64,000 bases of DNA from an uncultured Gammaproteobacteria bacterium (GCA_942491945.1 CALODD010000037.1:67500-131499); one strand, 5' to 3'. Shown: positions 3,158-45,455, counted from the first letter of the stretch. Numbers and translations are program-made. Notes: generated from the letters alone by a model not told the origin.

Positions 3158-3233
3158 TGGTGGCCAGGGACAGAATCGAACTGCCGACACGGGGATTTTC
3201 AGTCCCCTGCTCTACCGACTGAGCTACCTGGCC
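3158..3233 (-). tRNA. tRNA-Phe (GAA)
   Basis: The reverse complement reads ggccaggtagctcagtcggtagagcaggggactgaaaatccccgtgtcggcagttcgattctgtccctggccacca. It has a cloverleaf, a GAA anticodon and a terminal CCA. Confidence 0.92.
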
Positions 3234-3288
3234 ATCAGGTGGGGCGCGTATTAAACTCGGAGACGGCTATAGAGTCAAGTAATTCGTC

Positions 3289-3552: not shown

Positions 3553-3627
3553 TGCTCTATTTCTCTATGATTTACGTGCAAATATACGCTATTTCGAACC
3601 AAATGCCGATTGCGTGCAGGAACATAA

Positions 3628-8795: not shown

Positions 8796-8832
8796 ATTCT
8801 CTTTCCTGTATGTATGAGTTTATCGATACGTC

Positions 8833-9303: not shown

Positions 9304-9497
9304 GAAAACTCCTTTTTCTCATTGTTGCTTTAAATCTATTTTGGACAGCATAAGAGCTAATCACAAGTTAACCATATTACGGTTAACAACTCTTTACAAA
9401 AATGACCGATATCAGTTTTTTCGATTCTCCACCAGGCAGGAATCCTGCGTCATTATGATTCCCCATAACGCTACGTTATGATGCGCTTTGCCCTGTT

Positions 9498-10106
9498 TTG
9501 CTACGATCTACTATGTCAGCCAGCGACCTTAACCGTCTCCGCGAAGATATTCACTTCGAAACCACACTGTGTGAACAACCACTGAAATTCACCTCAACCT
9601 GGGGTATTTTTTCACCACGTGAGATCGATAGCGGCACCGACCTGTTGTTACGCTATCTCGAAGTTGATGCGGATAGCGATTGCCTGGACCTGGGCTGTGG
9701 CTATGGTCCTATCGGCATCACCATGGCCAGACTTGCGCCACAGGGTTCAACGCTAATGGTCGACAAGGACTTTATGGCCATTGAATATTCGAAAAAAAAT
9801 ATTGCGCAGAATCAGGTCAACAATGCACAGGCTCAGCTCAGCAACGGCTTTGATCATATTGATTCACAACGACGCTTTGATGTCATCGCTTCCAATATCC
9901 CGGCCAAAGTCGGTAAGGAACTGTTAACTCTTATATTGCACGATGGAAAACAGCGGCTCAATCCAGGGGGACGATTTTATGTTGTCACCGTGAATGGGCT
10001 ACGACAGTTTATGAAACGTTATATGACCGAGATCTTTGGTAACTATAAAAAGCTTAAACAGGGCAAGAATTATACCATCGCCTGCGCGACTCGAACTGAC
10101 GATTAA
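9498..10106 (+). CDS. Class I SAM-dependent methyltransferase (RsmC/RlmG-type small MTase domain)
   Basis: PREIDSGTDLLL, LDLGCGYGPIG (motif I) and NIPAKVG (NPPF-like motif IV). Confidence 0.65.
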   Translation: MLRSTMSASDLNRLREDIHFETTLCEQPLKFTSTWGIFSPREIDSGTDLLLRYLEVDADSDCLDLGCGYGPIGITMARLAPQGSTLMVDKDFMAIEYSKKNIAQNQVNNAQAQLSNGFDHIDSQRRFDVIASNIPAKVGKELLTLILHDGKQRLNPGGRFYVVTVNGLRQFMKRYMTEIFGNYKKLKQGKNYTIACATRTDD

Positions 10107-11461
10107 ACCAGACCTTCAGGTACATCTTCAGGGCTGATATCTTTTAAATGCCCAATAACCTGCGCACCATTATCAGGCCGATCCTCTGGTGACTTCGCCA
10201 ACAACACTTCGATAAGACCGTTCAATCCATCCCACTTATCAGTCAAAGCTGGGATCGGCTCACGTACATGCGCTGTAAATACCTGCAATGATGTCTTGCC
10301 TGTGAACGGGCGCTTACCTTCCAGCATTTCATACAGAATAACGCCCAGTGCGTACAGGTCGCAACGCTGATCAATCTTTCCGCCGACGGCCTGTTCAGGA
10401 CTAATGTAATACGGTGTACCGATGATCTGTCCTTCTTTCGTTAGATGCTTATCATGGCTATCAAAGGCCTTGGCAACACCAAAATCGACCAGCGCTAATG
10501 CGCCGTCTTCACGAAATAATATATTCGCTGGTTTTAAATCACGGTGCAGAATATTTAACTCATAAGCGGCCTGTAATCCTGCAGCGATTTGTGCCGCGTA
10601 CTGGATAGCTTCGGTCCGTGATACGCCTTCGCGAATTCTCGATTTTAAATCTCCACCTGGCAGGTATTCCATGACATTGTAAAAATATTCACCCTCAGCA
10701 ACATGCTCAAGAATTCGAACCACGTTCGGGTGATGAATTTCATTCAGTAATTCAAATTCCTGCGCAAATCGACGGGTTGAAACATCATCGATGAGCTGAT
10801 TATCCATTAGCTTTAGAGCATATAGCTGCTCGGATTGTCTGTGCCTGACTTTAAACACCGAAGCCGCACCTCCCATACCCAGATATTCCAGCACATCATA
10901 AGCACCCAGTCTGGCTTTACCTTCGGCGATCTCCAACATCGTGAACGGCCAGGTATTGTCCATCACCTCTTCGGGTAGCGTCAGCCATGCCCCAGAGAAC
11001 GGTGCATTAATTTGACTCATATCAGAAGGCTCGTCATCGACTTCCATGCTTTCTTTAGTGGCTTTCAATGTCGCAAGCCGCGCCAGTGATTCACGCAAGG
11101 TCTGGATATCCAGCATACTCATGGCCAGATAATCCAGCGCACCATGTCGCATCATCTCAGTGGATCGCTTCATGCTGTCTTTAAAGTCGATCACGATCAC
11201 TCGGCCAGCGATATCACTCTCGAGTTGCCCAAGAAAATCACTCGTAAACTCAAATTCCTTACCCGTCACCAGGAAAACAATATCGATAGAACTCAGGACT
11301 GAGGCGTTTAAATCTTGCAACGCCTGCCAGGAAAGACTGGTGGATGCAGAAAAAGCTTCGGTGAATAATGGTTCGAGCGCAGGCCGTAAACGAATATCAT
11401 CCAGCGCAATCAGCGCGGTATCAGCCTGCATGGCTGACATACGGTCATACTGCCCCGTCAC
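10103..11461 (-). CDS. Pseudo-receiver domain - Hanks-type Ser/Thr protein kinase
   Basis: Canonical HRDLKPANIL, DFGVAK and GTPYYISPE motifs. The N-terminal ~140 aa are REC-like but lack a clear acceptor Asp (IVFLVTGKEF). Confidence 0.8.
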   Translation of the reverse strand: MTGQYDRMSAMQADTALIALDDIRLRPALEPLFTEAFSASTSLSWQALQDLNASVLSSIDIVFLVTGKEFEFTSDFLGQLESDIAGRVIVIDFKDSMKRSTEMMRHGALDYLAMSMLDIQTLRESLARLATLKATKESMEVDDEPSDMSQINAPFSGAWLTLPEEVMDNTWPFTMLEIAEGKARLGAYDVLEYLGMGGAASVFKVRHRQSEQLYALKLMDNQLIDDVSTRRFAQEFELLNEIHHPNVVRILEHVAEGEYFYNVMEYLPGGDLKSRIREGVSRTEAIQYAAQIAAGLQAAYELNILHRDLKPANILFREDGALALVDFGVAKAFDSHDKHLTKEGQIIGTPYYISPEQAVGGKIDQRCDLYALGVILYEMLEGKRPFTGKTSLQVFTAHVREPIPALTDKWDGLNGLIEVLLAKSPEDRPDNGAQVIGHLKDISPEDVPEGLV

Positions 11462-11515: not shown

Positions 11516-13519
11516 CTAACTGGCTTTAAGCAGTTTCTTTTCAATGGTATCTGGAATTGCCTGAGACAGCGCCTGAATCAAATCCTGTCCTGTGGCATAG
11601 CGATCTTCGCGTTCCTTTGCCAGTAAACAAGTGACTACATCATTCAATGGATCCTGTGGACTGGACAGTTGAGGCACTTCACCATTGACGTGCAGCCGCA
11701 TGATCTCGAGCGAAGATTCACCTCGATAAGGACGAACACGTTCCAGCATTTCATACAGAATGACACCAAGGGCATACAAATCACTACGCCCATCTAGCTG
11801 ACTTCCCACGGCCTGCTCTGGGCTCACGTAATGCGGTGTTCCAACGACCTGTCCTGAAAACGTTAGAGTCGTTTGTCCTTCAGCCATCAGTTTAGCTATA
11901 CCAAAATCAAGAATCGCCAGTTCACCATTGTCTCGAAACATAATATTAGAGGGCTTTAAATCACGATGCAGAATGTTCTTTTGGTGAGCTGCGTGCAGCG
12001 CTGAAGCAATCTGAGCTGTAAACCGAACCACATCCTGTCGATCAATACCTTCTTTGATGCGATCTTTCAGATCACCACCCGGAAAATATTCCATGATTGA
12101 ATAAGCACTATTCTGATATTGAGCAAGGTCACGAATTTTAACGACATGTTCGTGATTGACTTCTTCAATCAACTGATAACCACGCAAGAAGCGTTTCTGC
12201 CCCTGCTGATCACTGGTATCCATATCAAACAACTTCATAGCAGACAGTTGTTGTGTATCCTGGTGCTTCACTTTAAATACTGATGCTGTGCCCCCTACTG
12301 CAACAAACTCAATCACATCATAATTATTCAGTGAAGCTTTACCCGCTTCAATATCTGCAGGCGTAAAGGGCCAGCGCTGCCCCATACTAAATTCCACAGC
12401 CTTACCGTGATGTTCAGGTAGCTCGGCCTGCTCCGCCACATTATCACGTTCAAGAATAGACATCAGACCGGTAGTAATAAACGACGCCTCCGACGGTCGA
12501 TCGTTTAGTTCAATTTCCGGTTCATAGGCGTCCATCTCACCGGTATAACCAGTCTCAACATATGGCTGTGATTTGCCTTCGCGCAATTTATTCGGCACAT
12601 CATGTTCATCGGTATTACGTTCTACGATATCGATTAAACCGGGTGTTATAAATGACGCTTCAGATGGTTCATCTATTTCATATTCATCGTCATCATTGGC
12701 GGCCAGACTGTCATTAATATCCGTGGCCTCGAGGCTTTCAGCACGATATACCCGGTCATCCGGTAACTCGCTGACGCCGTAGGCCTGATTGTTCAGGCTG
12801 TGATCTTCCAGCTCATTAGTAACGACAGGTTCAAGCGTGGTGGGATCCAGCCTTGGCAACACCTCGGTAGGCTCATCGGTCATGCCGTCATCTTCCGGCA
12901 GTGCATCGAACCTGATTGGTTCGGCAGTTTTCGTAGACTCGGTAATTGGTCGAACTTCAGGTAACAGATCGGTGGTGGGTTCTGGCTCTGAGGCAGGTTC
13001 TACAATATTTTCTTTCGCGGCTTCTACTGGCTCCACGGATATGGGCTGGGCTTCACTGACATTTTCATCTTGCTGAGCCTTGACTGGTTGAGGAAAACGT
13101 TCTTCACGAAGATTAGCCGCCATCAGCAAGGCACGTGTTAATCGTTGTGCGCTAACTTTGGTGATATCAATATAATCAGCGCCGCCTGCACGAACCATAT
13201 CACCGGCATCATCGACCGTTGCTGACCGATCCAGAAAAATGGCCATCGGCAACGAAACCTGAGTGATCAAATCGAAATACCAGCTACGTATTGCTGGCTT
13301 ATTTTCGGACATATCGACAATGACCAGATCGACTTCAGACCAGTCATAGTCGTGCTCTGGCAATCCCTGCTCGAATGGATCAATGGCCGAAAACTGCGGC
13401 TTATCTAACAGGCGCAATAACGCCACGGCCAAACCTCGGCGATATTTCACCACTGACCCAATCACAAGAATGCGTTTAAACCCGCAATCCGCAAGATTGT
13501 CGATCATTTCCACAGCCAT
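11516..13519 (-). CDS. Receiver-like domain - acidic repeat linker - Hanks-type Ser/Thr protein kinase
   Basis: HRDLKPSNIM, DFGIAK and GTPHYVSPE motifs. N-terminal REC-like domain (VDLVIVDMSE). An internal ~35-aa repeat (..PSEASFITPGLIDIVERN.. and ..PSEASFITTGLMSILERD..). Confidence 0.8.
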   Translation of the reverse strand: MAVEMIDNLADCGFKRILVIGSVVKYRRGLAVALLRLLDKPQFSAIDPFEQGLPEHDYDWSEVDLVIVDMSENKPAIRSWYFDLITQVSLPMAIFLDRSATVDDAGDMVRAGGADYIDITKVSAQRLTRALLMAANLREERFPQPVKAQQDENVSEAQPISVEPVEAAKENIVEPASEPEPTTDLLPEVRPITESTKTAEPIRFDALPEDDGMTDEPTEVLPRLDPTTLEPVVTNELEDHSLNNQAYGVSELPDDRVYRAESLEATDINDSLAANDDDEYEIDEPSEASFITPGLIDIVERNTDEHDVPNKLREGKSQPYVETGYTGEMDAYEPEIELNDRPSEASFITTGLMSILERDNVAEQAELPEHHGKAVEFSMGQRWPFTPADIEAGKASLNNYDVIEFVAVGGTASVFKVKHQDTQQLSAMKLFDMDTSDQQGQKRFLRGYQLIEEVNHEHVVKIRDLAQYQNSAYSIMEYFPGGDLKDRIKEGIDRQDVVRFTAQIASALHAAHQKNILHRDLKPSNIMFRDNGELAILDFGIAKLMAEGQTTLTFSGQVVGTPHYVSPEQAVGSQLDGRSDLYALGVILYEMLERVRPYRGESSLEIMRLHVNGEVPQLSSPQDPLNDVVTCLLAKEREDRYATGQDLIQALSQAIPDTIEKKLLKAS

Positions 13520-15537: not shown

Positions 15538-16458
15538 ATGGAACTCACGCTATGCATGATCGTCAAGGACGAAGAAGACAATATCGCTGACTGTCTGCGA
15601 CCGATACACGATCTGGTCAGTGATATTCAAATTATTGATACGGGATCGAGTGATCGTACGGTCGAAATCCTGCAGGGTGAGTTCAATATACACCCACGCA
15701 CTATCCTATTAAGAGACCGACATTGCTTTAGCTTTGGTGGTGCACGAACACTCTGTTTCCAACAGGCAAAAACAGACTGGATAATGCTGCTGGACGCCGA
15801 TGAAAGAATCGAACGAGGAGAATTAGAACAACTCATCGAATACCCGATGCCACAGAAAACTCATGGCTTGTTTGTGAGATGGGTCACACAGACTAAAAGC
15901 CACACGATTGAAGATTACAAACTTCCAATCTTCTCGAAAGATACCCGACACCGCGGTCGCATGCATGACACTGCTCAACCTGACTTCAGAAAGAAAGGTC
16001 GTATTGCAAAATGGTATAACGATTTAACTATCAGTCATTTTCCCAAAGAATCCAGCCGAGCCGACAAATCTAACTGGCGCTTAAAAGTCATGTCCTGCGG
16101 TTTACGCTATTCACCAAAATGGTATCGACATAGCTGGTTTCTCGGATACACCTATTACAAGGACAATGATTTAGACAATGCCCTGCAGCATCTACAACGT
16201 TGCGCTAATTCTAATTCTGAACGTTTTCCTGTTGAGCGTATAAATAGCCTGATGGTAATGACAGAAATTTATGCGCAGCAGAATGACATGATGTTAGCTA
16301 GTGCCTCTTTAAATAAGGCATTACAACTATATTTATCACATGAAAATGATTTTGAAGTAAGCATCAATTTTCGAATGAAACACTGGCTATACCTAACATC
16401 ACAATATCTAACTCATGGTGAGTTACACCATATCAAAGCCTATGAGTTTTCGTACTAA
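15538..16458 (+). CDS. Family 2 glycosyltransferase with C-terminal TPR-like helical region
   Basis: MIVKDEEDNI...DTGSSDRT...LDADE, typical GT2 DxD-type N-terminus. Confidence 0.6.
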   Translation: MELTLCMIVKDEEDNIADCLRPIHDLVSDIQIIDTGSSDRTVEILQGEFNIHPRTILLRDRHCFSFGGARTLCFQQAKTDWIMLLDADERIERGELEQLIEYPMPQKTHGLFVRWVTQTKSHTIEDYKLPIFSKDTRHRGRMHDTAQPDFRKKGRIAKWYNDLTISHFPKESSRADKSNWRLKVMSCGLRYSPKWYRHSWFLGYTYYKDNDLDNALQHLQRCANSNSERFPVERINSLMVMTEIYAQQNDMMLASASLNKALQLYLSHENDFEVSINFRMKHWLYLTSQYLTHGELHHIKAYEFSY

Positions 16459-17849
16459 GACATCAACTCCGACCTGAAATCCTCATACTTGCCTGCGGCG
16501 CTGCGCGGTACGTCAGAAACCTGATTTACCTTAATCGTCATTCCCGGCAAGTCCTGTTCAAACATTCTCTGGAGCTGCATCTGCTCAGTATTTGTCAGCT
16601 CTCGTGTACAAACAAGATCAGCACGAACAAGATCGTATTGCTGCTGCACAATTTGAAATTGTTTCACTGGTGCAATACCACGCAGCCGAGGTTCATTAAT
16701 CAAAGGCCAGAATGACGTACCATCTTCTCGGAGAAATATATTCCTGTATCGACCCATGATTTTGTTGAGTACTTTTAGACCACGTCCACAGGAACATGGT
16801 GTATGCCCAACTTCAGCCAGATCACCGATTTCATAACGTATTAATGGCATAGAAAAATTATGTAGATCTGTTACCACGACTTTACCCGTTTCGCCCGGTG
16901 CGCAAGGCTGGCCTTGCTCGTTCAATACTTCCATAAACACATCTTCTTCCATAATATGATAATGACTATGTTCCGGACACTGGAGTGCCAGATAGCCAAC
17001 TTCCCCACAACTATAGCCATCGACTAAATCCATACCAAGCACTTGCCTCGACAGTTCCCTCAAACCCTCAGGAATCTGTTCACTAAACGTCATGACCTGT
17101 TTTAACTTAGGTGCGTTATTATTTTCCTGCCAGTAATAAAGCAAGGTTTTTAGATTAGAGGGGTAGGTCAGTAAGTAATCAATAGATTCCGCTTTAATCC
17201 ACTCTGTCTGATGCGCGACATCGGCATAAATACTCAAGCTGGCAGCTTCGCCCGTCACGAATACTCGAGCTGCCGCTTCCCCCCAACGATCATGACTGTA
17301 CGCCGTCGGATGATCGCCATCATGAAAATCCGTATAGCGAATTGCACCAAATTTTGCATGCAAATCCCGCTCATGCCATAGATGACCTCGCAAGGTCATG
17401 GCTTGCCAGAACATATCGGTTAACTGGTTTTTTATAGAATAGACCGGCATCCCGGTTGAACCAGAGCTATGACTGAAAATTGATAGACCATGCTGGCGAG
17501 ATGGGAAAGCACTTAGCAGTTCTTTCTGATGGTGTTGTAGCTGTTCTCGAGTCAGAACAGGTAACTGCAACCAACGGTCCATTGATAGTGGAAAATTAAA
17601 ACTTAGATTCAGCTCTCGATAATGCTGCTGATAAAAAGGTACTGTATCTACTGCGTGTTCCAGCAGGTGTTCAAGCTGAAATAATTGCAACGTCTGTATT
17701 TCACTGGCTGACAACCATTGGCTTTTTTCGAGTTGATATTGCACCGAAGCCATCGCATTCGCCTGATCACTCTGCTGCACGGGCCAGACGATACCTGGGA
17801 CATGTAACTCATCACTTCGAAACGTATGATTCAAATCAGGCAACCGCAC
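16455..17849 (-). CDS. PaaK/CapK/F390-synthetase-like adenylate-forming enzyme (paralog 1)
   Basis: SSGSTGMPV P-loop and YSCGEVGY. The C-terminus GKYEDFRSEL is shared with the paralogs. Overlaps the next gene by 14 nt. Confidence 0.65.
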   Translation of the reverse strand: MRLPDLNHTFRSDELHVPGIVWPVQQSDQANAMASVQYQLEKSQWLSASEIQTLQLFQLEHLLEHAVDTVPFYQQHYRELNLSFNFPLSMDRWLQLPVLTREQLQHHQKELLSAFPSRQHGLSIFSHSSGSTGMPVYSIKNQLTDMFWQAMTLRGHLWHERDLHAKFGAIRYTDFHDGDHPTAYSHDRWGEAAARVFVTGEAASLSIYADVAHQTEWIKAESIDYLLTYPSNLKTLLYYWQENNNAPKLKQVMTFSEQIPEGLRELSRQVLGMDLVDGYSCGEVGYLALQCPEHSHYHIMEEDVFMEVLNEQGQPCAPGETGKVVVTDLHNFSMPLIRYEIGDLAEVGHTPCSCGRGLKVLNKIMGRYRNIFLREDGTSFWPLINEPRLRGIAPVKQFQIVQQQYDLVRADLVCTRELTNTEQMQLQRMFEQDLPGMTIKVNQVSDVPRSAAGKYEDFRSELMS

Positions 17850-19407
17850 TCGACTTTCTTATAAATTCAATCGGTACACCATCCATATACTCGGGAACAG
17901 GCTGCCCCATCAAATCGAGCAGTGTTGCAGTCAGATTGATCGCATGTGTTTCAGGCAGGCGCTGGCCTTGCGGAATGGACTGACCGGAAAACAGGGCAAA
18001 GCCATACGGACGATGTCCACCCGTTCTGAAGTAAGGCACTGGGCCAATCAGACCGGCATTTTCATCACGCACACTATCGAAAGGCTGTTGGTCATTCCAT
18101 TGCACGATTAAATCGGCATCTGGTAACCCAGATTGACCAAGCTGCTTGCTAGTTCTGGTTCGAACAATATTTTTAACAACTGACTGTCCTGAACGACCAT
18201 CCTTCAGCTGCGACACTTGTGAAGCAAGCTGATCACAATAGTCATCGTACTGTTCTGCTGAAATCATGCCATCGCGCTCACGCCCTTCAAGATTGATTCG
18301 TATGTACCCATCGGAATAACTCGGTAAGGCAAATGCCGACATCTGAGACCAGACCGTTCGATACCAGTTCGCTGGCATCCAGTCGAGCAGATCCTGACGA
18401 GCAATCTGCTCATCCGGTGATTCAAGTTTGTGGCCCGCCTTGTCAGACAATCGCCGCCACATCTCATATTTCCAGTGCAGCGGGAAGTTATAATCCAGCC
18501 CATCCTGATAAAATTTATCGGGGTCACCCAACGCCATTTCGCCGGGGAATGCCCAGCGATACATCGACTCAGGTAACAGCAACATGCTTGAGACATCCAT
18601 CACATTCGCCTGCATGCCATGAATAGAAAATACTGCGATGGTTGTCGAGTCATCGGCATCATCCATCAACTTACCGATCAGTTCATCACTGCGGATATAA
18701 ATATCCCTGACCCCCTGCTCACTCTCATCAGAATCATTCAATGGGTAATCCAGCCCCAGATGCCAGAGCGAGTGCCCTGCAGGGTGTGTTTCACCAATCG
18801 CACATAGAAACAAATCCCAGTCATCACTCTGGTAAGTTTCCATGAAGAGTTGTTCACGCATATCCAGCCCCTGCATGAACTCCTGCTTTAATACCGCCAG
18901 TTCCTCTCGGTCATAGCAGTTACGATGATCCCGCATCAAGGTCGGATGACAGCCAATCCGTTCACGAACATCGGCCAGCCAGTCGGCTGGTATCGACTCA
19001 CTGGGTGCCTGTGGTGAATGCGCACCCCAGCCAATCAATTGCTTTCCATTGACATCAACATGTGGACGACTATGCGGCATATCCATCACAGCCACTTTGG
19101 CTTTGTCACCCAGGGCATAAAACGGTGCGATATCTTTAAAATCATTCGCACCGGATTCAGTTGCTGTATATGTCTCAGGATCATAGGTCAGCATGCCCCA
19201 GTAACCACTGGTTTCCGGTAGACAACCAGTCAGAAAGTTAGTCCAGGGCGTTTCTGATTGGTAGATTTCCATATTACGCAAGGGTACGTAACTACCCTGC
19301 TCAGCTAATCGGGAAAGATTCGGCAGATAACCATCGGTCATCCAACGCTCAACTAACAGCGAATCTGCCGCATCAATCGCAATCGCTAGTAAACGGGATT
19401 TCCTCAT
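17836..19407 (-). CDS. Type I phosphodiesterase/nucleotide pyrophosphatase (alkaline-phosphatase superfamily) protein
   Basis: The N-terminus AIDAADSLLVERWMTDGYLPNLSRL and SETPWTNFLTG (putative Thr nucleophile) resemble the NPP/AlkP core. It is coupled by 4-nt and 14-nt overlaps to the flanking PaaK-like genes. Confidence 0.55.
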   Translation of the reverse strand: MRKSRLLAIAIDAADSLLVERWMTDGYLPNLSRLAEQGSYVPLRNMEIYQSETPWTNFLTGCLPETSGYWGMLTYDPETYTATESGANDFKDIAPFYALGDKAKVAVMDMPHSRPHVDVNGKQLIGWGAHSPQAPSESIPADWLADVRERIGCHPTLMRDHRNCYDREELAVLKQEFMQGLDMREQLFMETYQSDDWDLFLCAIGETHPAGHSLWHLGLDYPLNDSDESEQGVRDIYIRSDELIGKLMDDADDSTTIAVFSIHGMQANVMDVSSMLLLPESMYRWAFPGEMALGDPDKFYQDGLDYNFPLHWKYEMWRRLSDKAGHKLESPDEQIARQDLLDWMPANWYRTVWSQMSAFALPSYSDGYIRINLEGRERDGMISAEQYDDYCDQLASQVSQLKDGRSGQSVVKNIVRTRTSKQLGQSGLPDADLIVQWNDQQPFDSVRDENAGLIGPVPYFRTGGHRPYGFALFSGQSIPQGQRLPETHAINLTATLLDLMGQPVPEYMDGVPIEFIRKSSAVA

Positions 19408-20789
19408 AGCTCTGATTTGAAATCCTCGTATTTCCCCGTTGGGGATCGTTCAATTTCATCCGGATAGACAAAACGAAATTCAAACGCATGCCGTAATTCT
19501 TTCGTCAGCATGTCACTGATGGTTTGCTGCTCATTCGTATTCAGCTCTCGGTCAGCGACCAGACGTACCTCGATCACTTCTGATTCGATCTGAGCGAGTT
19601 GTAACTGCGTCACTGGCGCGATCTCCGTAATACGTCGCGTTGAAAAGACCGGCCAGTGCGAGGAACCATCTGGTAGCTTCAACATATTCCTGGTACGACC
19701 CAGAATACGTTTCAGGGTTAGCGACCCTCGACCACAGGCACAGGGCTCTCCCACCTCAGCGTAATCTCCAATTTCATAACGAATCAGAGGCATCGCAAAA
19801 TTATGCAATGGGGTGACGACGACTCGCCCTGTTTCTCTGCTCTTACAGGGCTGATATTCGTCATTTAAGACTTCGACAAGCATCGTTTCAGAACAAACGT
19901 GATAACTACCATGCTCAGGACATTGGAAAGCAATATTTCCAACTTCCATTGCGCTGTAAATATCGGCAATCGATGTATCAAAAACTTTCTCGCAATAAGC
20001 TCGGTCCTCAGCAGTTAAGACTTCGCCAATCGTACGAATTTGTTCAATCGATTGTAGTTCTGCATCAGATTGATCCATCAACTCCGCGAGCGCTCTCAGA
20101 TTCGAGGGATAAGTTAATAGATAATCAGGTTGCTCATCCAACAGCCAACGCAGCTGATCGGCAACATCACATTCTATGCTCAGCATGACGGTCATACCGC
20201 CGGAGTAGACTTCATCAATCGGGTGGCCCCAACCGGCAGAGCGTATGCCAGGCGGTGACCGGGCTTCCTCACTATCACCGGTATAGCGAATCGATGCGAG
20301 TTTTTTACGATGATTCCGTCCATGCCATTCATGTTCTCGTAAAGTCTGCGCGTACCACATAAATTGCTGCATATCGGTGACATAGACATTGACTGGCAAA
20401 CCTGTTGAACCGGATGAGCCTGTTTCAAGGATATCGCCATGCTCTTTCGGTATTGCCGTACTGGTCAAATCGGCTGAGTGCCGCTGTAAAGCCCAGCGTT
20501 GAAGTACGGGGATAGACTGCCATTCATCGATACTAATACCCGGCCGGGAGAGATTGATACGTTGTAATTCGGATAGACTTCGATAGTAGGATACCGTCCG
20601 AATCGCATGATCCAGTAAGGCATGAAGTTGTTTTAGCTGTTGTTGCTGAATTTCACCACAGCTAAGCCGTTCAGACTGGCTAAACTGGAACTGCATAGAT
20701 AGCAGGGAGGCGGCCGTTGGTGAGGGTAAAGCCGGCCACATAACACCCTGCAATGTGGAGTCAGCGACTACCGGTGGCATTTCCATCAT
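19404..20789 (-). CDS. PaaK/CapK/F390-synthetase-like adenylate-forming enzyme (paralog 2)
   Basis: SSGSTGLPV P-loop and C-terminal GKYEDFKSEL. Confidence 0.65.
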   Translation of the reverse strand: MMEMPPVVADSTLQGVMWPALPSPTAASLLSMQFQFSQSERLSCGEIQQQQLKQLHALLDHAIRTVSYYRSLSELQRINLSRPGISIDEWQSIPVLQRWALQRHSADLTSTAIPKEHGDILETGSSGSTGLPVNVYVTDMQQFMWYAQTLREHEWHGRNHRKKLASIRYTGDSEEARSPPGIRSAGWGHPIDEVYSGGMTVMLSIECDVADQLRWLLDEQPDYLLTYPSNLRALAELMDQSDAELQSIEQIRTIGEVLTAEDRAYCEKVFDTSIADIYSAMEVGNIAFQCPEHGSYHVCSETMLVEVLNDEYQPCKSRETGRVVVTPLHNFAMPLIRYEIGDYAEVGEPCACGRGSLTLKRILGRTRNMLKLPDGSSHWPVFSTRRITEIAPVTQLQLAQIESEVIEVRLVADRELNTNEQQTISDMLTKELRHAFEFRFVYPDEIERSPTGKYEDFKSEL

Positions 20790-20877
20790 TGCTAACCCAA
20801 ATAAAATCCGCCGGGAATTACCTGCTATTGGGAATCAAAGCATCATGAGTCCCGACGATTGCATAATTAGCGATCTA

Positions 20878-22164
20878 CTACCTTGCAAGCGGCCGCGAAG
20901 TCGCATGAAACGTATCTGCACGATCAGATTGTGTCAGGGCACCTCTCATCAAGGTCGCGCCGATAATATCAGCCCCCGTTGATCCAATAAATGAAGCATC
21001 GACGACACCACCATCTACCGAATTTCCAAAATTCTGCACAATCGTACCTGTCAACACAGATCCACTGAACGTACCGCCCGCATCAAAGTTAGGCCCAGTA
21101 CCACCTGTCCATGAGCCCGTCCAGGTTTTATTCGTAAAATTCACTGTCATCCCAATGTTTTTAGTGCCTTTATGAGAACGCCCAATAAAGTTGACCGCAC
21201 CCAGATTTGACATCCCGTTAATGGTGGCAGCAGCAGTCGGACGGCCGGCAACAAAACTACCGTTTAATCTACCAGCCCCCTCAGCACCGTTCGCACCTGG
21301 AACAACTCGGTCGATAAATAAGAAGTTTAGGCGACCTTCCAGACCATCCGGCTCACCGTGACCCGTCGTAAAAGTACTCGGCGCATTAAACCCGAACCAA
21401 CCGGGTGCTTCATTAAGCGCTCCACCATACGTAAAAAAGTTAGTTCCACCCATACCGCCACCAGCAGTTATTTGACCACCAGTAGCTACCCCACCGATTT
21501 TAATTGGGGCCGGAGCAGCAGCACCTTTCATCGATAAATGGATACTCTGTTGAGCATTATTTGTAATTTTCTGCCATGGAGCCACTGGAACCGCAGGTAC
21601 TGGATTTATTGCGTCAACCGTTAGCGCACCGCCGCCCAAATTCGAAAAATTTGTTATTGAATAACTCATTGTCGTTACCACGTCTTTAGTGGTATTCACT
21701 GGAACCGTCGTCGGATCAGCATCACTGAGCTTAATAGCCAATCGACCAATTCCACCGACTTGTGGTTTATCGAGAGCACTGTGATTTAAACCACCGGTTG
21801 TAATATCACTAATACGACCTTCAGCCGCTACAAAACCACGGAAGTCACCTTTTGCAAGACGTGTTGTACTGCCTGTATTTGTAGTTCCGGGTCTAAAGTT
21901 TTGCTTCGGGTTATTCGCAACGCCGCTCTGACCTCCGGGACCTTTGCCGTTATTATCACCATTACTGCCGTCATTCTTAACGACAACCAGGCGTCCAGCA
22001 GCCGTCCTGTGAACAACGACGGGCTTAGTACTCGTACCAGCGCCGGCTAACCACGGACCCCAGTCGGTTACATCATCTGCAATCGCTGCTGGTGCAGCTA
22101 CAGCCATTGCTATGGAACAACTTAGTGTTGTTTTACGTCCATTCATGTTTTTCATGTTTACCAT
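20878..22164 (-). CDS. Gly/Thr-rich secreted beta-rich protein. Candidate surface-exposed cargo of the adjacent Slam-like OMP.
   Basis: Signal peptide with an AIA-DD cleavage site. No canonical lipobox. The C-terminal region has G/T-rich, amphipathic beta-barrel-like repeats (GTFSGSVLTGTIVQNFG...). Confidence 0.4.
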   Translation of the reverse strand: MVNMKNMNGRKTTLSCSIAMAVAAPAAIADDVTDWGPWLAGAGTSTKPVVVHRTAAGRLVVVKNDGSNGDNNGKGPGGQSGVANNPKQNFRPGTTNTGSTTRLAKGDFRGFVAAEGRISDITTGGLNHSALDKPQVGGIGRLAIKLSDADPTTVPVNTTKDVVTTMSYSITNFSNLGGGALTVDAINPVPAVPVAPWQKITNNAQQSIHLSMKGAAAPAPIKIGGVATGGQITAGGGMGGTNFFTYGGALNEAPGWFGFNAPSTFTTGHGEPDGLEGRLNFLFIDRVVPGANGAEGAGRLNGSFVAGRPTAAATINGMSNLGAVNFIGRSHKGTKNIGMTVNFTNKTWTGSWTGGTGPNFDAGGTFSGSVLTGTIVQNFGNSVDGGVVDASFIGSTGADIIGATLMRGALTQSDRADTFHATSRPLAR

Positions 22165-22236
22165 CCTGCCATCCAGAGATGACTTTAATCCGTTTCTGAA
22201 TTAAATAATTCTAGTTCAGTTTGTAATAACTGCTGT

Positions 22237-23505
22237 TTAGTTCCACTGTTTACCGATACTAATACCGGCCTGCTGGCGATCGTAGGAATAACCAATGGTA
22301 TTGCTATTGTTGTCGGTATCACTGAAATAGCCGCTGACAATCCAGTTCTTCAGACGCCCACTTTGAAAAGTATGATTCACACCCAGTGAAGTAGAACGAT
22401 AGGATTCATCACGATCATCAACCGACAGCAATGCGCTTATAGTGTCTTTGTATTTGGTGTCTTTATCTGTATAACGCAGCGATACAGTACCGCCCTTCCA
22501 GGCGTTCCAGCTACCTCCAACAAAGTATTCTTCACCTCGACTAGAGTAAGCATCAACCTTGGCGCTTTCATCAAAACTGGTTACTCCAGCAGATAGCGTG
22601 ACTTTATCGTTGATCTGATAGGCAACAGCCGCACTGATGGCTTTATAGGTACTATCGCGTCCCAAATTATCGTTTGTCTGGTCAGTGTAGTCGCGATCCT
22701 GAACCTCTGCAGATAGACTAATTTCGGCTTTTTTGTATTGCCAGGACACACCTGGAGCAATCGAAACATAGTTCGCTAAATTGGTATTCCCGAGACGAAT
22801 ATGATCAGCCTGCAGACTGATGGAACCACGTAGTTCATTTGCGATAACAAATGCTGGGCCGGTACGCACTGTCAGCACATCAAGATCGAAATCATTTTCA
22901 GAATCGTAGTCATCGCGGAAAAAAGCTAAATCTGTCAGCCACATCCAGGCAACGTCTTTGCCGCGCAGTTTGGTCGTTTTGTCAAACAAGTAACGATGGG
23001 TAGCTGACGCGTTGTAATTCGTACCTTCGTCCGACTGAGGATTACTCGTCGCTGGCAATGTCACGCCACCAATTGTTCCAGCACCGGCACCGACATTGAC
23101 GTTGTCATCGCTAGTACGGCCGACGAAGATTGAACCTGACCATTTATGCTTCTTACTCTCGTCTTGCAGACGTTGCATGAATTCACGAATCGTGACTTTC
23201 ACACCCTCAGGTGTTTTTGGATCATTCAGAACTTCTTCTGCCATGCCGCGCGCTTCCTGGAAATTCAGGGTATAAAAACGAGTCAGAGCAAGTTCCAGAC
23301 GAGCACGCGCAAGTGACGGCTCCTTATTAACAATTTGCTGAAGCAGGCCTACCGCGTCATGATAGTTACCCTGCTCACGTTGCTGCAGTGCTTCATCGAA
23401 CGCTTTCTGGATATCTTCAGAGACTGCATACGCAGGCGCTGCGACAGCTAGCGATAACACTAAGGCCGTCGATAAAGAAACCAATTGTTGTTTTAGTGAG
23501 CGCAT
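22237..23505 (-). CDS. TPR-domain plus C-terminal beta-barrel outer-membrane protein (Slam/DUF560-like)
   Basis: Signal peptide (..AAPAYA). ~100-aa TPR-like helical domain. C-terminal region of alternating amphipathic beta strands ending in W-rich residues. GGGGGAGTAATG RBS/start at 23505. Confidence 0.45.
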   Translation of the reverse strand: MRSLKQQLVSLSTALVLSLAVAAPAYAVSEDIQKAFDEALQQREQGNYHDAVGLLQQIVNKEPSLARARLELALTRFYTLNFQEARGMAEEVLNDPKTPEGVKVTIREFMQRLQDESKKHKWSGSIFVGRTSDDNVNVGAGAGTIGGVTLPATSNPQSDEGTNYNASATHRYLFDKTTKLRGKDVAWMWLTDLAFFRDDYDSENDFDLDVLTVRTGPAFVIANELRGSISLQADHIRLGNTNLANYVSIAPGVSWQYKKAEISLSAEVQDRDYTDQTNDNLGRDSTYKAISAAVAYQINDKVTLSAGVTSFDESAKVDAYSSRGEEYFVGGSWNAWKGGTVSLRYTDKDTKYKDTISALLSVDDRDESYRSTSLGVNHTFQSGRLKNWIVSGYFSDTDNNSNTIGYSYDRQQAGISIGKQWN

Positions 23506-23687
23506 TACTCCCCCCAGAGATGATAAAAGTGCGCTAGTCGCATAATGTATTGCATACGGACTACCATTAAATAGATAGCAATAATTCACAATATGATAAA
23601 TGTACTACCAATCCAGATATAATAGGGTAATAGCCTACATATTTAAATAGAAGATTTCAAAAGTCTACACACTAATTAACCGGATAA

Positions 23688-24356
23688 ATGTTACTTAAAA
23701 TTAACCATCACAAGCTCAGAGAGCCGTTGTCACTTCGTCAGGGCTCCAGCGATGAACACAACTATCAACAGATTTTTGTCGACGATGAATACTGTATTGA
23801 GACGAAGATTGCCCCAAAAACCATAGTAGATCTTGGGGCGAATATCGGTTTGTCAGCGATCTGGTTTGCTTCGCACTACCCAGACAGCCTTATTATTGCA
23901 ATTGAACCAGAACGGTCGAATTACCAATTACTAGCGGAGAACGCCTCTGTCTACGAAAATATTCGGACACTGCGTGCCGCAGTCTGGTTTGAAGAGACTG
24001 AGCTTCATCTTACAGATCCGGGAAAGGGCCACTGGGGGTTTCAAACTCAAGAACAAGACTCCCCTAATGCATTCGATCGCATCAGCACCGTAACTGTCCG
24101 ATCAATTATGAAAAACCACAATATCAATCACATCGATATTCTAAAAATCGATATTGAAGGCGCTGAAGTCGAATTACTTTCAGATAATTCCCAATGGATC
24201 TCTCAGGTGAATATGATCATCATTGAACTGCATGATCGTTTTCGCGAGGGGTGCCAGGAAGCCCTGCATAACATTGCACACCATTTTGATCAGCAATGGC
24301 AACAGGGCGAAAATATCGTACTGGCGAAATCTTCGTTTATTAACAGGGCGGCCTAA
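23688..24356 (+). CDS. FkbM-family SAM-dependent methyltransferase
   Basis: VDLGANIGLSAIWFA, typical FkbM motif I. Confidence 0.65.
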   Translation: MLLKINHHKLREPLSLRQGSSDEHNYQQIFVDDEYCIETKIAPKTIVDLGANIGLSAIWFASHYPDSLIIAIEPERSNYQLLAENASVYENIRTLRAAVWFEETELHLTDPGKGHWGFQTQEQDSPNAFDRISTVTVRSIMKNHNINHIDILKIDIEGAEVELLSDNSQWISQVNMIIIELHDRFREGCQEALHNIAHHFDQQWQQGENIVLAKSSFINRAA

Positions 24357-25735
24357 TCCAGCTCACTCATGAAATCTTCGTATTTACCAGATGCTGACCT
24401 GGGAATATCATCGACGTAGCGATAGTTGATTTTGAATGGATAACCCAGGCTCTCTTGCAAGACGTCATCCATTTTTCGAGTCTGCTCATAATCCAGAGAT
24501 TCTGACAACACCAGCTGCAATTCCAGTGTATCCAATGTTTTCTGGATTAATCGGTACTGACGAATATCTGCTATCGCATTGAACCGTCCATCCTCCATCA
24601 TCGGCCAGAAATAAGCACCATCGGGGCGTCGTAACATATTTCGTGCACGACCATAGACGCGGTTCAGCACAGGCAGGGTTCGCCCGCAACTACAGGCATT
24701 ACCCAGTTCTGCGTAATCCCCCACTTCGTATCGAATTAAGGGCGTTGCGAAACTGTGCAAAGAGGTTATGACCACTCGGCCTGTTTGTCCTGGTAAACAA
24801 GGTTCATCATTCTCATCGAGAATTTCGATGTAATTGGCTTCGGCTAGCTGATGATAATGGTCCTGTTCGGGGCACTGCAAAGCCAAATGACCCGTCTCTT
24901 GTGCTGAATAAACATCTTGCAGTTCCGCGCCAAGCACTTCTTCGCACAGTTGCCGCAAACCATCAGGCAACTGTTCTGCCATGGTCACAACGACCTTTAT
25001 CGACAGTGATTCATCACGAGACTGCAGAATACGACAAATTGCCCGTAGGTTGCTCGGGTAGGTCAACAAGTATTGCGGTCGCTCTTTCAATAACCAGTCG
25101 ACCTGCTCGCCAACGTCATCAATCACGTTTTTAACAGCACACTCGCCACTCTTAAACGCCATTGCTGTCGCTGAACCCCAGTCATCCAGGATGTACTCAG
25201 TCGATGCCTCGTGCGTATTCCCCAGGAAACGGATAACTGCAACTTTGTCACCTACTTCCCGCTGATGCCAGATATCGTCACGCATACTCTGCGCCATCCA
25301 CATCAACTGATTAACTTCCGTTCGATACACCGTAATCGATTTACCCGTTGAGCCCGAGGTACTGACTGAACTAATACCGCCATGCTCTTCAGGAGTGCGG
25401 TTGCAGCTAATCTCTGATAGGTTCTGCTGCAACTCGGTACGCGTGAGTATCGGTAACCTGCACAGGAAATCCGCATCAATCTTCATCCCCTGCCGATAAT
25501 TAACCTGATCTAGTCGTTCTCGATACCAGAGACTGTGCTTCCAGGCATGTTCAAAGAGCAATCCCAGCTGACGAAACTGCAGCCACTGAATTTCCTCCAG
25601 CGGCATTCGCTCCGATTGCTGCAGCTGGCGTTGCATAGCGAGTAATGTCGCATTCTCTGATGTAGGGACACCGGGCCAGACGATATTGGGAATTGCGGTC
25701 TTCACTTGCATCGCACTAGTGTGCCGGAACGACAT
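24353..25735 (-). CDS. PaaK/CapK/F390-synthetase-like adenylate-forming enzyme (paralog 3)
   Basis: TSGSTGKSI P-loop and C-terminal GKYEDFMSEL. Confidence 0.65.
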   Translation of the reverse strand: MSFRHTSAMQVKTAIPNIVWPGVPTSENATLLAMQRQLQQSERMPLEEIQWLQFRQLGLLFEHAWKHSLWYRERLDQVNYRQGMKIDADFLCRLPILTRTELQQNLSEISCNRTPEEHGGISSVSTSGSTGKSITVYRTEVNQLMWMAQSMRDDIWHQREVGDKVAVIRFLGNTHEASTEYILDDWGSATAMAFKSGECAVKNVIDDVGEQVDWLLKERPQYLLTYPSNLRAICRILQSRDESLSIKVVVTMAEQLPDGLRQLCEEVLGAELQDVYSAQETGHLALQCPEQDHYHQLAEANYIEILDENDEPCLPGQTGRVVITSLHSFATPLIRYEVGDYAELGNACSCGRTLPVLNRVYGRARNMLRRPDGAYFWPMMEDGRFNAIADIRQYRLIQKTLDTLELQLVLSESLDYEQTRKMDDVLQESLGYPFKINYRYVDDIPRSASGKYEDFMSELD

Positions 25736-27683: not shown

Positions 27684-30197
27684 ATGGCAATTTTGGGATC
27701 ATTCAGTCTTGGCGGCGCGCTAGACAAAATACTGACCACAGGCGATATTGAAGCGCCTGCAGTTCAGTCCGCGCTGAAGAAACTGACTGATAACCCCAAG
27801 GCCGCGATGGAGAAAGTGCTCAATGTAATCGCTTCCGGTCCGAGACTGCATCACTCAACAGCGTATAAGCTGGTTAGCCGCTTACTGGACAACACAACGG
27901 TTGGCATGGTGATGCAGGCATTACCCTCCTTTCCCGATGACGCTCAGGCACAAATTGCTACAACTCTAAATACCAGCAATCAATATGACCCACATTTGTT
28001 ACTACCGTATTTGCGCACACCACTAAATACCTCACTCTGTAAAGATATGCTCACAGCGCATCGCCGAGATTTTAAAGCTGCAAAATTACTCTCCGCAGTC
28101 ATCAAAATTGACCCGGATTTACAGGACAATGTATTCGAACTCATTCATGCCAATGTCGATGAAACAGCGCTTGCTGAAGCGATCGCCCTGAGTCATAGCA
28201 AAGACGACAATATTCGAACACAGGTCACCAGCATCATCGCCGAGTTTGACAATCCGGCGGCCCAGGAAGCACTGATGACCCTGTTGAATGACAACAGTCA
28301 AAAGGTTCGTCTTAATGCCCTGCGAGGTCTTGTCAAAATACGTGCTGATCTAGCAACAGGTGATTTATTCCGTTTGATGTCAAAAGCAAAGAAAGAAGAA
28401 TCGCCTTTAGTAAAGGCATTAATTAGCTGCTCCACCGACCCTAAGCTACTAGAAAACTTCATCGAGGCACTATTCGCACCGAAAGGCAAAATGAAGCCAC
28501 TTGCCATCGCTGGCCTGTCTGAATTAATGAATAAAGACGTGCTATATGAAATTTTTTACGAATTGCATGATAAGCCAGAAGCCACGCAGGATTCTATGAT
28601 CCGTTCACTACAGGATGCAGGTGGCGAAAAGTTTCTGACGGCCGCCAATGAATTACTCAGTCACTACGACGAAGATATACGACGACTGGCGGCGAATGCA
28701 TTCCATGAACAGGATACCGGTGAAGAAACTGTGATTGAAGGTATGTTGAATGGCCTAGCCGTCGACATACCTAACAATTTAAAGCTGGAATACATTGAAA
28801 AACTCGGACACGCTGGTGTCACTAGCGCAGTCGATCCACTCATTAAAATTTTAGGCAGCGAAGACACCGAACTATTCGCGCCTTCGCTAGATGCACTGGC
28901 AAGTATTGGCGACCCAAAAGCACTGGCTGCGGCTTTTGAAGCTCTGAACGCCAAAGACATTGAAATCCAGACAAGTGCGCTGAAGTGTCTAAATGCCATT
29001 ACACCAGACAAGTTTGCTGAACGCTTACGTGACCAGTTATTAGAGCTATCCAACCATGTCCATGAAGATGTCATAGAGGAACTAGTCAATACGGTTGAAA
29101 CACTGACTGACAAGCACAACCTTCGCACCACAACGCATTACAAACGCACGATTGAGTCGCTTAAAAAATCCGATAACGATGAATTTGGATTTGCGCCCGA
29201 AGCTTCGTCAGCGAATAGCATGTTTGCTCCTGAAGAAGAATCGAGTTCGTCTTACTCCATGTTCGGTAAGGATGAAGCTGATAATGGCGTCTTTGGCGTG
29301 GTCGATGAAACCGATAGCGGATCTGGAGATGAATCAGCTGAGCCAGCAGAAGAACCTGTCTTTGCGGTCAATCTCGAAGAAGGGCTAGTACTGAATGACC
29401 GCTATGAGTTGATCCGAGAAATTGGCCGTGGTGGTTATGGTTCCGTCTGGCTAATAAAAGACAACTTCATCCAGGAAGAAATGGTGATGAAGTTTCTTCA
29501 TCAACAGCTGGTATCAGACGATATTGCTATTGAACGTTTTATTCGCGAGCTACGACTGGCACGAAAGATTACTCACAAGAACATTATTCGTTTGTTCGAC
29601 TATCTCGATCTAGGCAAGGTCACTGCGATCTCCATGGAATACTTCGAGGGCGCAGCACTCTCCAGCCTCATCAAAGACGGGCCGATAGAAATTAATGCGA
29701 TTGCCAAGATTGCATCCATCACCTGCGATGCCCTGCATTCGGCGCATGAAGCCGGCGTTATTCACCGCGATATGAAACCGGCAAACATTCTGGTCGACAC
29801 TAACCATGAAATAAAAATTGTCGACTTCGGCATTGCAGCGGCCAGCAAACATGCAGAATCCAGACTAACCCGTACCGGTACTCTCATTGGTACGCCGACC
29901 TATATTTCACCCGAGCAAATTCAGGGTAAAGCGGTTGATGCCAGAACGGACATCTATAGTCTGGGCATCATCATGTACGAAATGTTATCCGGCTCACCGC
30001 CATATCTGGCTGATGACCCGATGGCACTAATTTTCATGCATGTTGAAGGCAGTGCACGACGAATTGATGACGTCAATCCGCTGGTTCCAAAGGAATTCGC
30101 TGATATCGTTCATAAGTGCATATTGCCTGATCCTGATGAACGCTTTCAGAGCATGCTAGAACTACGCGAAGCAATTTCTCAAACAGGTTTAGCCTGA
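27684..30197 (+). CDS. HEAT/PBS-lyase-repeat protein fused to C-terminal Hanks-type Ser/Thr kinase
   Basis: N-terminal ~530 aa of HEAT-like repeats. Kinase motifs GRGGYGSVW, HRDMKPANIL, DFGIA and GTPTYISPE. Confidence 0.8.
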   Translation: MAILGSFSLGGALDKILTTGDIEAPAVQSALKKLTDNPKAAMEKVLNVIASGPRLHHSTAYKLVSRLLDNTTVGMVMQALPSFPDDAQAQIATTLNTSNQYDPHLLLPYLRTPLNTSLCKDMLTAHRRDFKAAKLLSAVIKIDPDLQDNVFELIHANVDETALAEAIALSHSKDDNIRTQVTSIIAEFDNPAAQEALMTLLNDNSQKVRLNALRGLVKIRADLATGDLFRLMSKAKKEESPLVKALISCSTDPKLLENFIEALFAPKGKMKPLAIAGLSELMNKDVLYEIFYELHDKPEATQDSMIRSLQDAGGEKFLTAANELLSHYDEDIRRLAANAFHEQDTGEETVIEGMLNGLAVDIPNNLKLEYIEKLGHAGVTSAVDPLIKILGSEDTELFAPSLDALASIGDPKALAAAFEALNAKDIEIQTSALKCLNAITPDKFAERLRDQLLELSNHVHEDVIEELVNTVETLTDKHNLRTTTHYKRTIESLKKSDNDEFGFAPEASSANSMFAPEEESSSSYSMFGKDEADNGVFGVVDETDSGSGDESAEPAEEPVFAVNLEEGLVLNDRYELIREIGRGGYGSVWLIKDNFIQEEMVMKFLHQQLVSDDIAIERFIRELRLARKITHKNIIRLFDYLDLGKVTAISMEYFEGAALSSLIKDGPIEINAIAKIASITCDALHSAHEAGVIHRDMKPANILVDTNHEIKIVDFGIAAASKHAESRLTRTGTLIGTPTYISPEQIQGKAVDARTDIYSLGIIMYEMLSGSPPYLADDPMALIFMHVEGSARRIDDVNPLVPKEFADIVHKCILPDPDERFQSMLELREAISQTGLA

Positions 30198-45440: not shown

Positions 45441-45455
45441 AAAGTAATTTGCCCT

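Follow-up and report, generated by a model that had tools for sequence, protein, structure and literature searches.

In a window of 64,000 nucleotides from an uncultured Gammaproteobacteria bacterium (GCA_942491945.1 CALODD010000037.1:67500-131499; "the window" below means this whole stretch), we examined a gene cluster that encodes three related ligase-like proteins, here named CapK1, CapK2 and CapK3, together with an NPP-like phosphohydrolase, a GT2 glycosyltransferase carrying a TPR-like domain (GT2-TPR), an FkbM-family methyltransferase and a Slam-like secretion pair. Part of this cluster, arranged as CapK->NPP<-GT2-TPR, is a conserved module, which is a new finding and occurs in four loci: the window and three others (L169, L170 and L171). 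We interpret the whole, with about even confidence, as catalytically intact ligases of the CapK clade of the ANL superfamily that would amidate the sugar acids of surface glycans. For one subgroup of CapK proteins, the conserved module provides a concrete hypothesis, namely sugar addition, amidation and dephosphorylation of a surface glycan.

Fold and catalytic motifs of the CapK proteins

The three minus-strand open reading frames (ORFs) that a preliminary description had recognised as PaaK-like were recovered at the same positions, and their P-loops (SSGSTGMPV, SSGSTGLPV and TSGSTGKSI) were re-read identically. In a full-length alignment, the three proteins show 38-41% pairwise identity. The Pfam scan gave weak AMP-binding matches for them, and the NCBIfam models matched (the DVU_1553 family, FlxY, PaaK, F390-related and BagE) all scored far under their curated cut-offs. 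The PaaK equivalogs were not reached (TIGR02155, 55-71 bits against a cut-off of 646; NF041878, 69-82 against 700), nor were the F390 synthetase models (FtsA TIGR03335, 22-28 bits against 459; F390-related TIGR02304, 50-67 against 252). With equivalog scores so far below the cut-offs, the earlier view of these proteins as PaaK-like but diverged holds: they are PaaK-fold ANL enzymes that are neither PaaK nor F390 synthetase.

The AlphaFold2 (AF2) model of CapK3 (pLDDT 91) was used for a Foldseek search. The best matches were PaaK1 (PDB 2y27), BT_0428 (4r1l) and PaaK2, with E-values of about 1e-26 to 1e-28, followed by ClxA, 2-hydroxyisobutyryl-CoA ligase (HCL), NatL2 and AjiA1; by sequence, the closest solved proteins to CapK1-3 are likewise PaaK-family ligases, at about 20% identity. 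The predicted structure thus places CapK1-3 in the PaaK branch of the ANL superfamily, with its two-domain adenylate-forming fold. All three paralogs carry the P-loop [ST]SG[ST]TG, the YSxxE block, the IRYExGD block with the ribose-binding Asp, the GR hinge and the A10 Lys, and the residues SGSTG, E280, D340, G362-R363 and K451 (CapK3 numbering) are invariant in a 22-member alignment of the clade. Because these motif blocks are present in all three proteins and invariant across the 22 members, CapK1-3 look catalytically competent.

A set of cysteines was also observed in these proteins. The pattern QCP...PC...CxCGR (C288, C313, C348 and C350 in CapK3; window positions about 24686-24874, minus strand) is conserved throughout the clade, with three of the cysteines invariant and one nearly so. 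CxCG occurs in BT_0428, NatL2 and ClxA as well, and has no counterpart in E. coli PaaK. This cysteine set may form a structural zinc site.

A conserved CapK-NPP-GT2-TPR module

The NPP gene sits between CapK2 (upstream) and CapK1 (downstream) and is translationally coupled to both. The AF2 model of its product (pLDDT 90) gave ENPP1/3, Xac NPP, PhnA and SPAP as the best Foldseek matches (TM about 0.45-0.5, 12-16% identity; E about 1e-12 for ENPP1/3, Xac NPP and PhnA), so that the model assigns the 523-aa protein to the NPP/alkaline phosphatase superfamily, with an NPP-like fold. No signal peptide was evident in its sequence. The family is mainly cyanobacterial, and in cyanobacteria its genes lie in exopolysaccharide (EPS) loci that also contain GT4, acetyltransferase, Wzy and Wza genes but lack CapK. 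The shorter, proteobacterial-type NPPs usually have a CapK gene directly before them, as seen twice in L164 and once each in L169, L170 and L171.

In the last three of these loci, a convergent GT2 gene comes next after the CapK-NPP pair, and its product (301-307 aa) is a full-length orthologue of the GT2-TPR protein of the window (E 1e-51 to 1e-61; 35% identity over 300 aa for L169). The order in the window is the same except that CapK1 is inserted between the NPP and GT2-TPR genes; the CapK1 start overlaps the 3' end of NPP by 14 nt. CapK3 stands apart from CapK1 and CapK2, the secretion pair and the FkbM gene intervening. The closest solved sequences to GT2-TPR are GmaR (E 1.9e-11) and SunS (8.8e-7), over aa 4-251, both of which are protein or peptide glycosyltransferases. 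In L170 the module abuts genes for an RmlA-like nucleotidyltransferase, epimerases/dehydratases and several GT2 proteins, and in L171 a KpsC/KpsS-type capsule locus surrounds it. A distant CapK homologue in the archaeon Methanohalobium also has GT2 and GT4 genes as neighbours. In our literature search, no description of the CapK/NPP/GT2 combination was found.

Several further features of these loci were recorded. The convergent pairs GT2-TPR/CapK1 (16455-16458) and FkbM/CapK3 (24353-24356) share the same 4-base CTAA overlap, in which the plus-strand gene stops with TAA and the minus-strand gene with TAG, and the convergent NPP/GT2-TPR junction is likewise tight in L169-L171 (gaps of 13, 4 and 1 bp). 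L164 contains, at 3045-10239, the series aminotransferase - CapK - NPP - CapK - NPP, and, after these, a protein exceeding 1,200 aa whose N-terminus is FecR-like; the CapK-NPP unit of this locus was duplicated in tandem, since the two CapKs are each other's nearest relatives (92% bootstrap). In L166 (Gloeothece citriformis PCC 7424, CP001291 5.07-5.10 Mb), three NPP-like paralogs lie inside an EPS cluster that contains GT4, GT2, hexapeptide acetyltransferase, Wzy_C, sulfotransferase, cellulase and Wza genes and no CapK. A fragment 100% identical to the window NPP (P0121) was found in a Logan-assembled sequencing run. Promoter and terminator scans gave counts at shuffle level, and the Rfam scan gave no match inside the cluster.

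The C-terminal tail as a signature of a large clade

The preliminary description had drawn attention to a nearly identical C-terminus shared by the three paralogs. In the alignment, the tails read VPRSAAGKYEDFRSELMS in CapK1, IERSPTGKYEDFKSEL in CapK2 and IPRSASGKYEDFMSELD in CapK3, all ending in RSxxGKYEDFxSEL, and a 14-residue sliding window confirmed the near-identity, with 11 of 14 positions invariant. The same scan showed that the tail shares first place in conservation with the PLIRYExGD block, with YLLTYPSNL next (10/14); the tail is therefore one among several conserved catalytic-motif blocks and no unique anomaly.

The further suggestion that the tail is not general among PaaK ligases was half right. 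The C-terminus of E. coli PaaK, IPRSEGKACRVFDL (more fully ...IPRSEGKACRVFDLRNIVGA), contains IPRSEGK, and the PRSxxGK part is therefore the ordinary ANL A10 catalytic-lysine motif, which is universal and in every PaaK-like enzyme lies close to the C-terminus. E. coli PaaK lacks the second half, and so do distant PaaK-like proteins, two of which, taken from a plasmid-collection search whose matches were only 23-29% identical, end in PESGKHRFIIS and ESPTGKFRLCVS without [YF]E[DE]FxSE. By contrast with these, GK[YF]E[DE]F, a signature derived in the present analysis rather than a published definition, is present in 101 of the 120 best database matches, in 73/105 homologues from genome loci and in 94/138 single-domain representatives of 50%-identity clusters. 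Because it is so common across the homologues, we regard the tail as a clade signature: judged from these sequences, it is the A10 motif in the clade-specific form PRSxxGK[YF]E[DE]FxSE, located 8-12 residues from the C-terminus. The motif thus does mark a subfamily, as had been proposed, but this subfamily is huge and already known (Pfam CapK_C), and the tail is not peculiar to the three genes. As a cheap signature that splits the CapK-like clade from true PaaK, it should improve annotation.

CapK3 (identical to database protein P0001) and nearly all its homologues have precomputed matches to CapK_C, PF27533; the match is direct for CapK3 only, CapK1 and CapK2 being placed in the family through their full-length identity to CapK3. 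When 1.84 billion cluster representatives (50% identity) were scanned in full with HMMER, 1,734 members were found at E<=1e-30 and 11,642 at E<=1e-10. The CapK-like clade is therefore very large; almost none of it has been characterised, and the label "phenylacetate-CoA ligase" is routinely given to it in error.

Each paralog shares 43-48% identity with its best outside relatives and 39-41% with its siblings, and the three are as distant from one another as from any member of the clade. As the preliminary description had held, the paralogs are thus old, and on these sequence comparisons they are certainly no recent duplicates. Neighbour-joining (NJ) trees of 169 and 172 sequences (100 bootstraps each) were star-like, with every node around the window paralogs under 25%, and the NPP-adjacent CapKs were not monophyletic; because of these values, the trees neither separate a lineage-specific triplication from an ancient duplication nor define orthologous groups. 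In a set of 5.8 billion proteins, CapK3 shares 45% identity with its closest non-self match. Sampling of the source lineage is poor, and CysS of the window, too, is alone in its 90% cluster.

We then compared 82 CapK loci, which were retrieved with the family alignment. Most contain a single CapK copy, about 20 contain a pair and two loci (L032 and L037) contain three copies each, and an NPP homologue adjoins CapK only in L012 and L016; the idea that members always occur in triplets with an NPP gene was thus not borne out. Natural fusions were seen as well, including CapK-CapK tandems of 800-970 aa (P0257, P0243, P0248, P0316 and P0325), a CapK joined to a class-I methyltransferase (P0359) and a GT4 glycosyltransferase joined to a CapK (P0379). 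The existence of the tandem fusions suggests that paired CapK genes could act as heterodimers.

A Slam-like secretion pair beside the ligases

Between CapK2 and the FkbM gene lie a divergent Slam-like outer-membrane protein gene and a gene for its putative type 11 secretion system (T11SS) cargo. The Slam-like protein scored under the TPR_Slam cut-off (Table 1) and had no SlipAM match; all six of its aligned relatives match TPR_Slam and three of the six match SlipAM/DUF560 (best E 3.9e-6). Its true start is probably near 23505 (MRSLKQQ..., with a signal peptide). Residues 291-421 of the cargo aligned by hhalign with the barrel of a PF01298-matching (TbpB_B_D) cargo family, whose members score above the PF01298 cut-off, at 96.7% probability (E 4.7e-10). 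A word-index homologue search for the cargo returned the cargo itself only. The Slam, cargo, CapK2, NPP and CapK1 genes are co-directional, and they are separated by gaps of 72 and 88 bp or overlap.

Slam-like genes occur within 10 kb of CapK in 7 of the 82 other loci, in several architectures; a rough estimate of the chance expectation is about 1%, well below this share. CapK was found beside Slam plus TbpB_B_D cargo (L002, L019, L046, L052, L077, L083 and L089), beside Slam plus FecR-domain proteins (L029 and L060), and also beside two-partner secretion (TPS) exoproteins. Counted in reverse from the Slam side, CapK was nearby in only 3 of 80 metagenome loci, and a role of CapK as an integral part of the T11SS was rejected on this count. 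The CapK-Slam neighbourhood is thus recurrent but facultative. Should this neighbourhood be functional, type 11 secretion would be linked to the decoration of glycans or proteins.

A separate observation concerns the Slam-like subfamily itself. In the loci L083-L160, L019, L052 and L077, its gene is almost always divergently preceded by genes for a BTLCP protein (Peptidase_C93, LapG-like) and a PAS-HD-GYP protein, and the cargo N-terminus carries DSxxxWGxW-x(5-6)-[PT]AAG (14/14 metagenome cargo proteins and 3/4 genome-locus cargo proteins checked). This motif resembles the di-alanine cleavage site of LapG. These sequence features suggest a c-di-GMP-controlled proteolytic release of type 11 secretion cargo. 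The window cargo has both WGPW and TAAG, with a spacing that differs from the subfamily motif, and in the window neither a BTLCP nor an HD-GYP gene was found. A text search of two studies of T11SS neighbourhoods found no mention of ligases, BTLCP or HD-GYP.

A possible role in surface-glycan amidation, and its alternatives

In the pathway that we propose, each CapK would adenylate a carboxylate with ATP; an amine, not CoA, would then accept the acyl group, giving an amide. The likeliest carboxylate would be that of a sugar acid in a cell-surface glycan or glycoconjugate. CapK2, the NPP-like phosphohydrolase and GT2-TPR would act as one three-gene module, in which, by analogy with the Campylobacter capsule, a sugar would be added, amidated with a phosphorylated amine and then freed of the phosphate. 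This three-step decoration is proposed because of the amide step that needs VpsH in Vibrio cholerae and the glycosyltransferase/amidoligase/phosphatase sequence of Campylobacter jejuni, both described at the end. CapK1 and CapK3 would make further or different amide decorations, and FkbM would contribute a methylation; since the paralogs are old, the three probably differ in substrate. The suggestion of three distinct substrates or steps, made in the preliminary description, is plausible. The Slam-like pair, which is predicted to be co-transcribed with CapK2-NPP-CapK1, would be part of the same cell-surface locus.

The link to glycans is supported by the occurrence of the module in a sugar-nucleotide locus (L170) and a capsule locus (L171), by the GT4-CapK fusion, by the GT2/GT4 context in Methanohalobium and by the cyanobacterial NPP-like paralogs in an EPS cluster. 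A role that does not involve CoA is supported by the nearest solved relatives, which include the CoA-independent ligases NatL2, ClxA and AjiA1. No paa genes were found in the window, and the cluster is flanked by cysS and thiG.

Several points weigh against surface-glycan amidation. No close member of the clade with a known substrate was found, and the nearest solved relatives of CapK1-3 act on small molecules. Wzx/Wzy, Kps and sugar-nucleotide genes were not found near the cluster in the window. A census of 129 immediate CapK neighbours at 81 loci was led by class-I methyltransferases (13), OCD/mu-crystallin proteins (5) and aminotransferases (4), not by glycosyltransferases, a distribution that agrees with small-molecule chemistry no less well than with glycan chemistry. 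The NJ trees, with the relevant nodes under 25%, give no support to functionally distinct orthologous groups. As for the two known systems, VpsH is likened to CapK1-3 by its annotation (PaaK/CapK-like) only, and the Campylobacter proteins are not homologous to those of the window (a HAD phosphatase against an AlkP/NPP-like one; the ligase here belongs to the ANL superfamily), so that the parallel is one of logic only. The Campylobacter amidoligase has a different ligase fold.

The missing assembly genes, the neighbour census and the small-molecule solved relatives together make a small-molecule pathway a serious rival, which we consider possible and on the unlikely side. Here the three ligases would join small carboxylic acids to amines, and the resulting diffusible amide metabolite, for example a metallophore, a solute or a signal, would be tailored by NPP, FkbM and GT2; the Slam-secreted protein would bind or deliver the product, like haemophilin with haem. 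Such a role accords with the small substrates of the solved relatives (PaaK, ClxA with 3,4-AHBA, NatL2, AjiA1 and HCL), with the weak NCBIfam matches to FlxY, BagE and DdaG, with the census, in which one decarboxylase joins the dominant families named above, and with the CapK-methyltransferase fusion. Known T11SS cargo proteins bind haem or metals (PMC12282271), which also fits. However, the cluster encodes neither an exporter nor a TonB-dependent receptor nor a regulator, CapK2 has a glycosyltransferase as its conserved partner, the module occurs in capsule and sugar loci, and a GT4-CapK fusion exists.

The protein glycosyltransferases related to GT2-TPR raise another explanation, which we think improbable: acting in the cytoplasm, prior to Sec export, GT2-TPR would glycosylate the co-encoded cargo or a different surface protein, and the CapKs, NPP and FkbM would then elaborate the glycan or protein carboxylates. 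HMW1C and the autotransporter heptosyltransferases are precedents for glycosylating Sec-exported adhesins in the cytoplasm. Besides GmaR and SunS being the closest solved sequences to GT2-TPR, the co-directional, close-packed order of Slam, cargo, CapK2, NPP and CapK1 and the recurrent position of CapK next to genes for secreted proteins (Slam cargo, FecR-domain proteins and TPS exoproteins) are in line with this. On the other hand, GT2-TPR was not found in any other Slam/cargo locus examined, the CapK-NPP-GT2-TPR module occurs without Slam in L169-L171, CapK is near only the 3 of 80 loci of the Slam subfamily mentioned above, and we know of no ANL enzyme that amidates a protein-bound glycan. 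The broadest form of this idea, in which the CapK clade consists of dedicated decorators of secreted surface proteins and the module builds an amidated glycan on the T11SS cargo of the same operon before export, seems to us improbable; if true, it would link a ligase clade of thousands to the post-translational modification of T11SS, TPS and FecR-type exoproteins.

That the three proteins are ordinary phenylacetate-CoA or aryl-CoA ligases, or F390-synthetase-type nucleotidyl transferases, serving catabolism or cofactor modification, is very unlikely: the homologues are annotated "phenylacetate-CoA ligase", the fold matches PaaK and NPP could in principle hydrolyse a nucleotidylated product, but the equivalog scores lie far below the cut-offs (PaaK 55-71 against 646; FtsA 22-28 against 459), paa genes are missing from the window, the hosts are not methanogens and the carboxylate-adenylation lysine is conserved.

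Gene organisation and other features of the window

The features of the cluster are collected in Table 1.

Table 1. Features of the CapK cluster; positions are counted from the first letter of the window.
Feature	Position	Strand	Evidence or remark
GT2 glycosyltransferase with C-terminal TPR-like domain (GT2-TPR), 306 aa	15538-16458	+	PF00535 58 bits and weak TPR matches
CapK1, predicted CapK-clade PaaK-fold adenylate-forming ligase, 464 aa	16455-17849	-	ORF; AMP-binding and PaaK-like matches, all sub-cut-off; alignment
CapK1 tail RSAAGKYEDFRSEL, aa 449-462, A10 lysine K454	16464-16505	-	Alignment, window scan
NPP-like alkaline-phosphatase-superfamily phosphohydrolase, 523 aa	17836-19407	-	PF01663 65 bits (cut-off 23); AF2/Foldseek
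CapK2, predicted CapK-clade ligase, 461 aa; belongs to the CapK->NPP<-GT2-TPR module	19404-20789	-	ORF, NCBIfam, alignment, synteny in L169/L170/L171
CapK2 tail RSPTGKYEDFKSEL, aa 448-461	19407-19448	-	Alignment
Putative type 11 secretion cargo, secreted, 428 aa (database start: 425 aa)	20878-22164	-	Signal peptide, WGPW, TAAG, C-terminal TbpB-like barrel
Divergent Slam-like outer-membrane protein, N-terminal TPR and beta-barrel	22237-23589	-	TPR_Slam 30.3 bits (cut-off 35.2); adjacent cargo gene
FkbM-family S-adenosylmethionine (SAM) methyltransferase, 222 aa; convergent with CapK3	23688-24356	+	PF05050 61.6 bits, TIGR01444 93 bits
CapK3, predicted CapK-clade ligase, 460 aa	24353-25735	-	ORF, NCBIfam, alignment, precomputed Pfam CapK_C and AMP-binding (identical protein P0001)
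CapK3 tail RSASGKYEDFMSEL, aa 446-459, A10 lysine K451	24359-24400	-	Alignment

Around the cluster, four Ser/Thr protein kinase genes (3628-5133, 10103-11461, 11516-13519 and 27684-30197) and two GGDEF diguanylate cyclase genes (32879-34156 and 37600-38754) were observed; two of the kinase genes are adjacent, and one has a long helical-repeat region before it. A low-GC region at 44-50 kb was considered as a polysaccharide locus and rejected, as it is an integrase/AbiC island. This island (44613-50980, GC 0.37-0.42) holds a phage-type integrase gene (46821-47813), a gene for a putative AbiC abortive-infection protein (44613-45440) and a DUF5677 gene, and it adjoins three tRNA genes (50592-50980).

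Comparison with known systems

PaaK (E. coli b1398; Burkholderia cenocepacia PaaK1/2, PDB 2y27 and 2y4o) has the same two-domain fold as predicted for CapK3 (Foldseek E about 1e-28) and shares with CapK1-3 the P-loop, YxxxE, IRYxxxD, the GR hinge and the IPRSxGK lysine motif near the C-terminus. In contrast to PaaK, to which they are about 20% identical, the CapK proteins are longer by about 35 residues at the N-terminus and carry an insertion (about 30 residues, near aa 165-205) as well as the QCP...PC...CxCGR cysteines, which E. coli PaaK lacks. The residues after the lysine also differ (YEDFxSEL in CapK, ACRVFDLR in E. coli PaaK), and there is no paa operon at the CapK cluster.

The benzoxazole-pathway ligases NatL2, ClxA and AjiA1 (PDB 6siw/6tm4, 9s3l/9s45 and 6wuq, respectively) are among the best matches in both sequence and structure. 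The acceptor of the adenylate in these enzymes is an O or N nucleophile and not CoA; the CxCG motif is common to CapK1-3 and such CoA-independent PaaK-like ligases, and ClxA ends in KPKYVEY, which aligns to GKFEDF. For the structures 9S3L/9S45, no paper was found in our literature search, and the name ClxA is that of the Foldseek entry description. The three proteins differ from CapK1-3 in that they are only 20-22% identical to them, use aromatic small molecules and occur in other gene contexts.

The only functional datum that we found for a CapK-like protein comes from VpsH of V. cholerae, which has been described as PaaK/CapK-like and is needed, on genetic evidence, for the glycine amide at the carboxylate of GulNAcA in the lipid-linked Vibrio polysaccharide (VPS) disaccharide (PMC13463779). 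VpsH is encoded by a single gene inside a Wzx/Wzy cluster, whereas the window has three paralogs with NPP, GT2-TPR and FkbM and no assembly machinery nearby.

A similar order of steps is found for the glucuronate of the C. jejuni HS:2 capsule, where the glycosyltransferase Cj1432N is followed by the ATP-dependent amidoligase Cj1438C, which attaches serinol-P, and then by the phosphatase Cj1435 (PMC11800397). The C. jejuni set also includes the aminotransferase Cj1437, just as L164 has an aminotransferase gene upstream of its CapK-NPP units, and it lies in a KpsC/KpsS capsule setting, as does the CapK module of L171.

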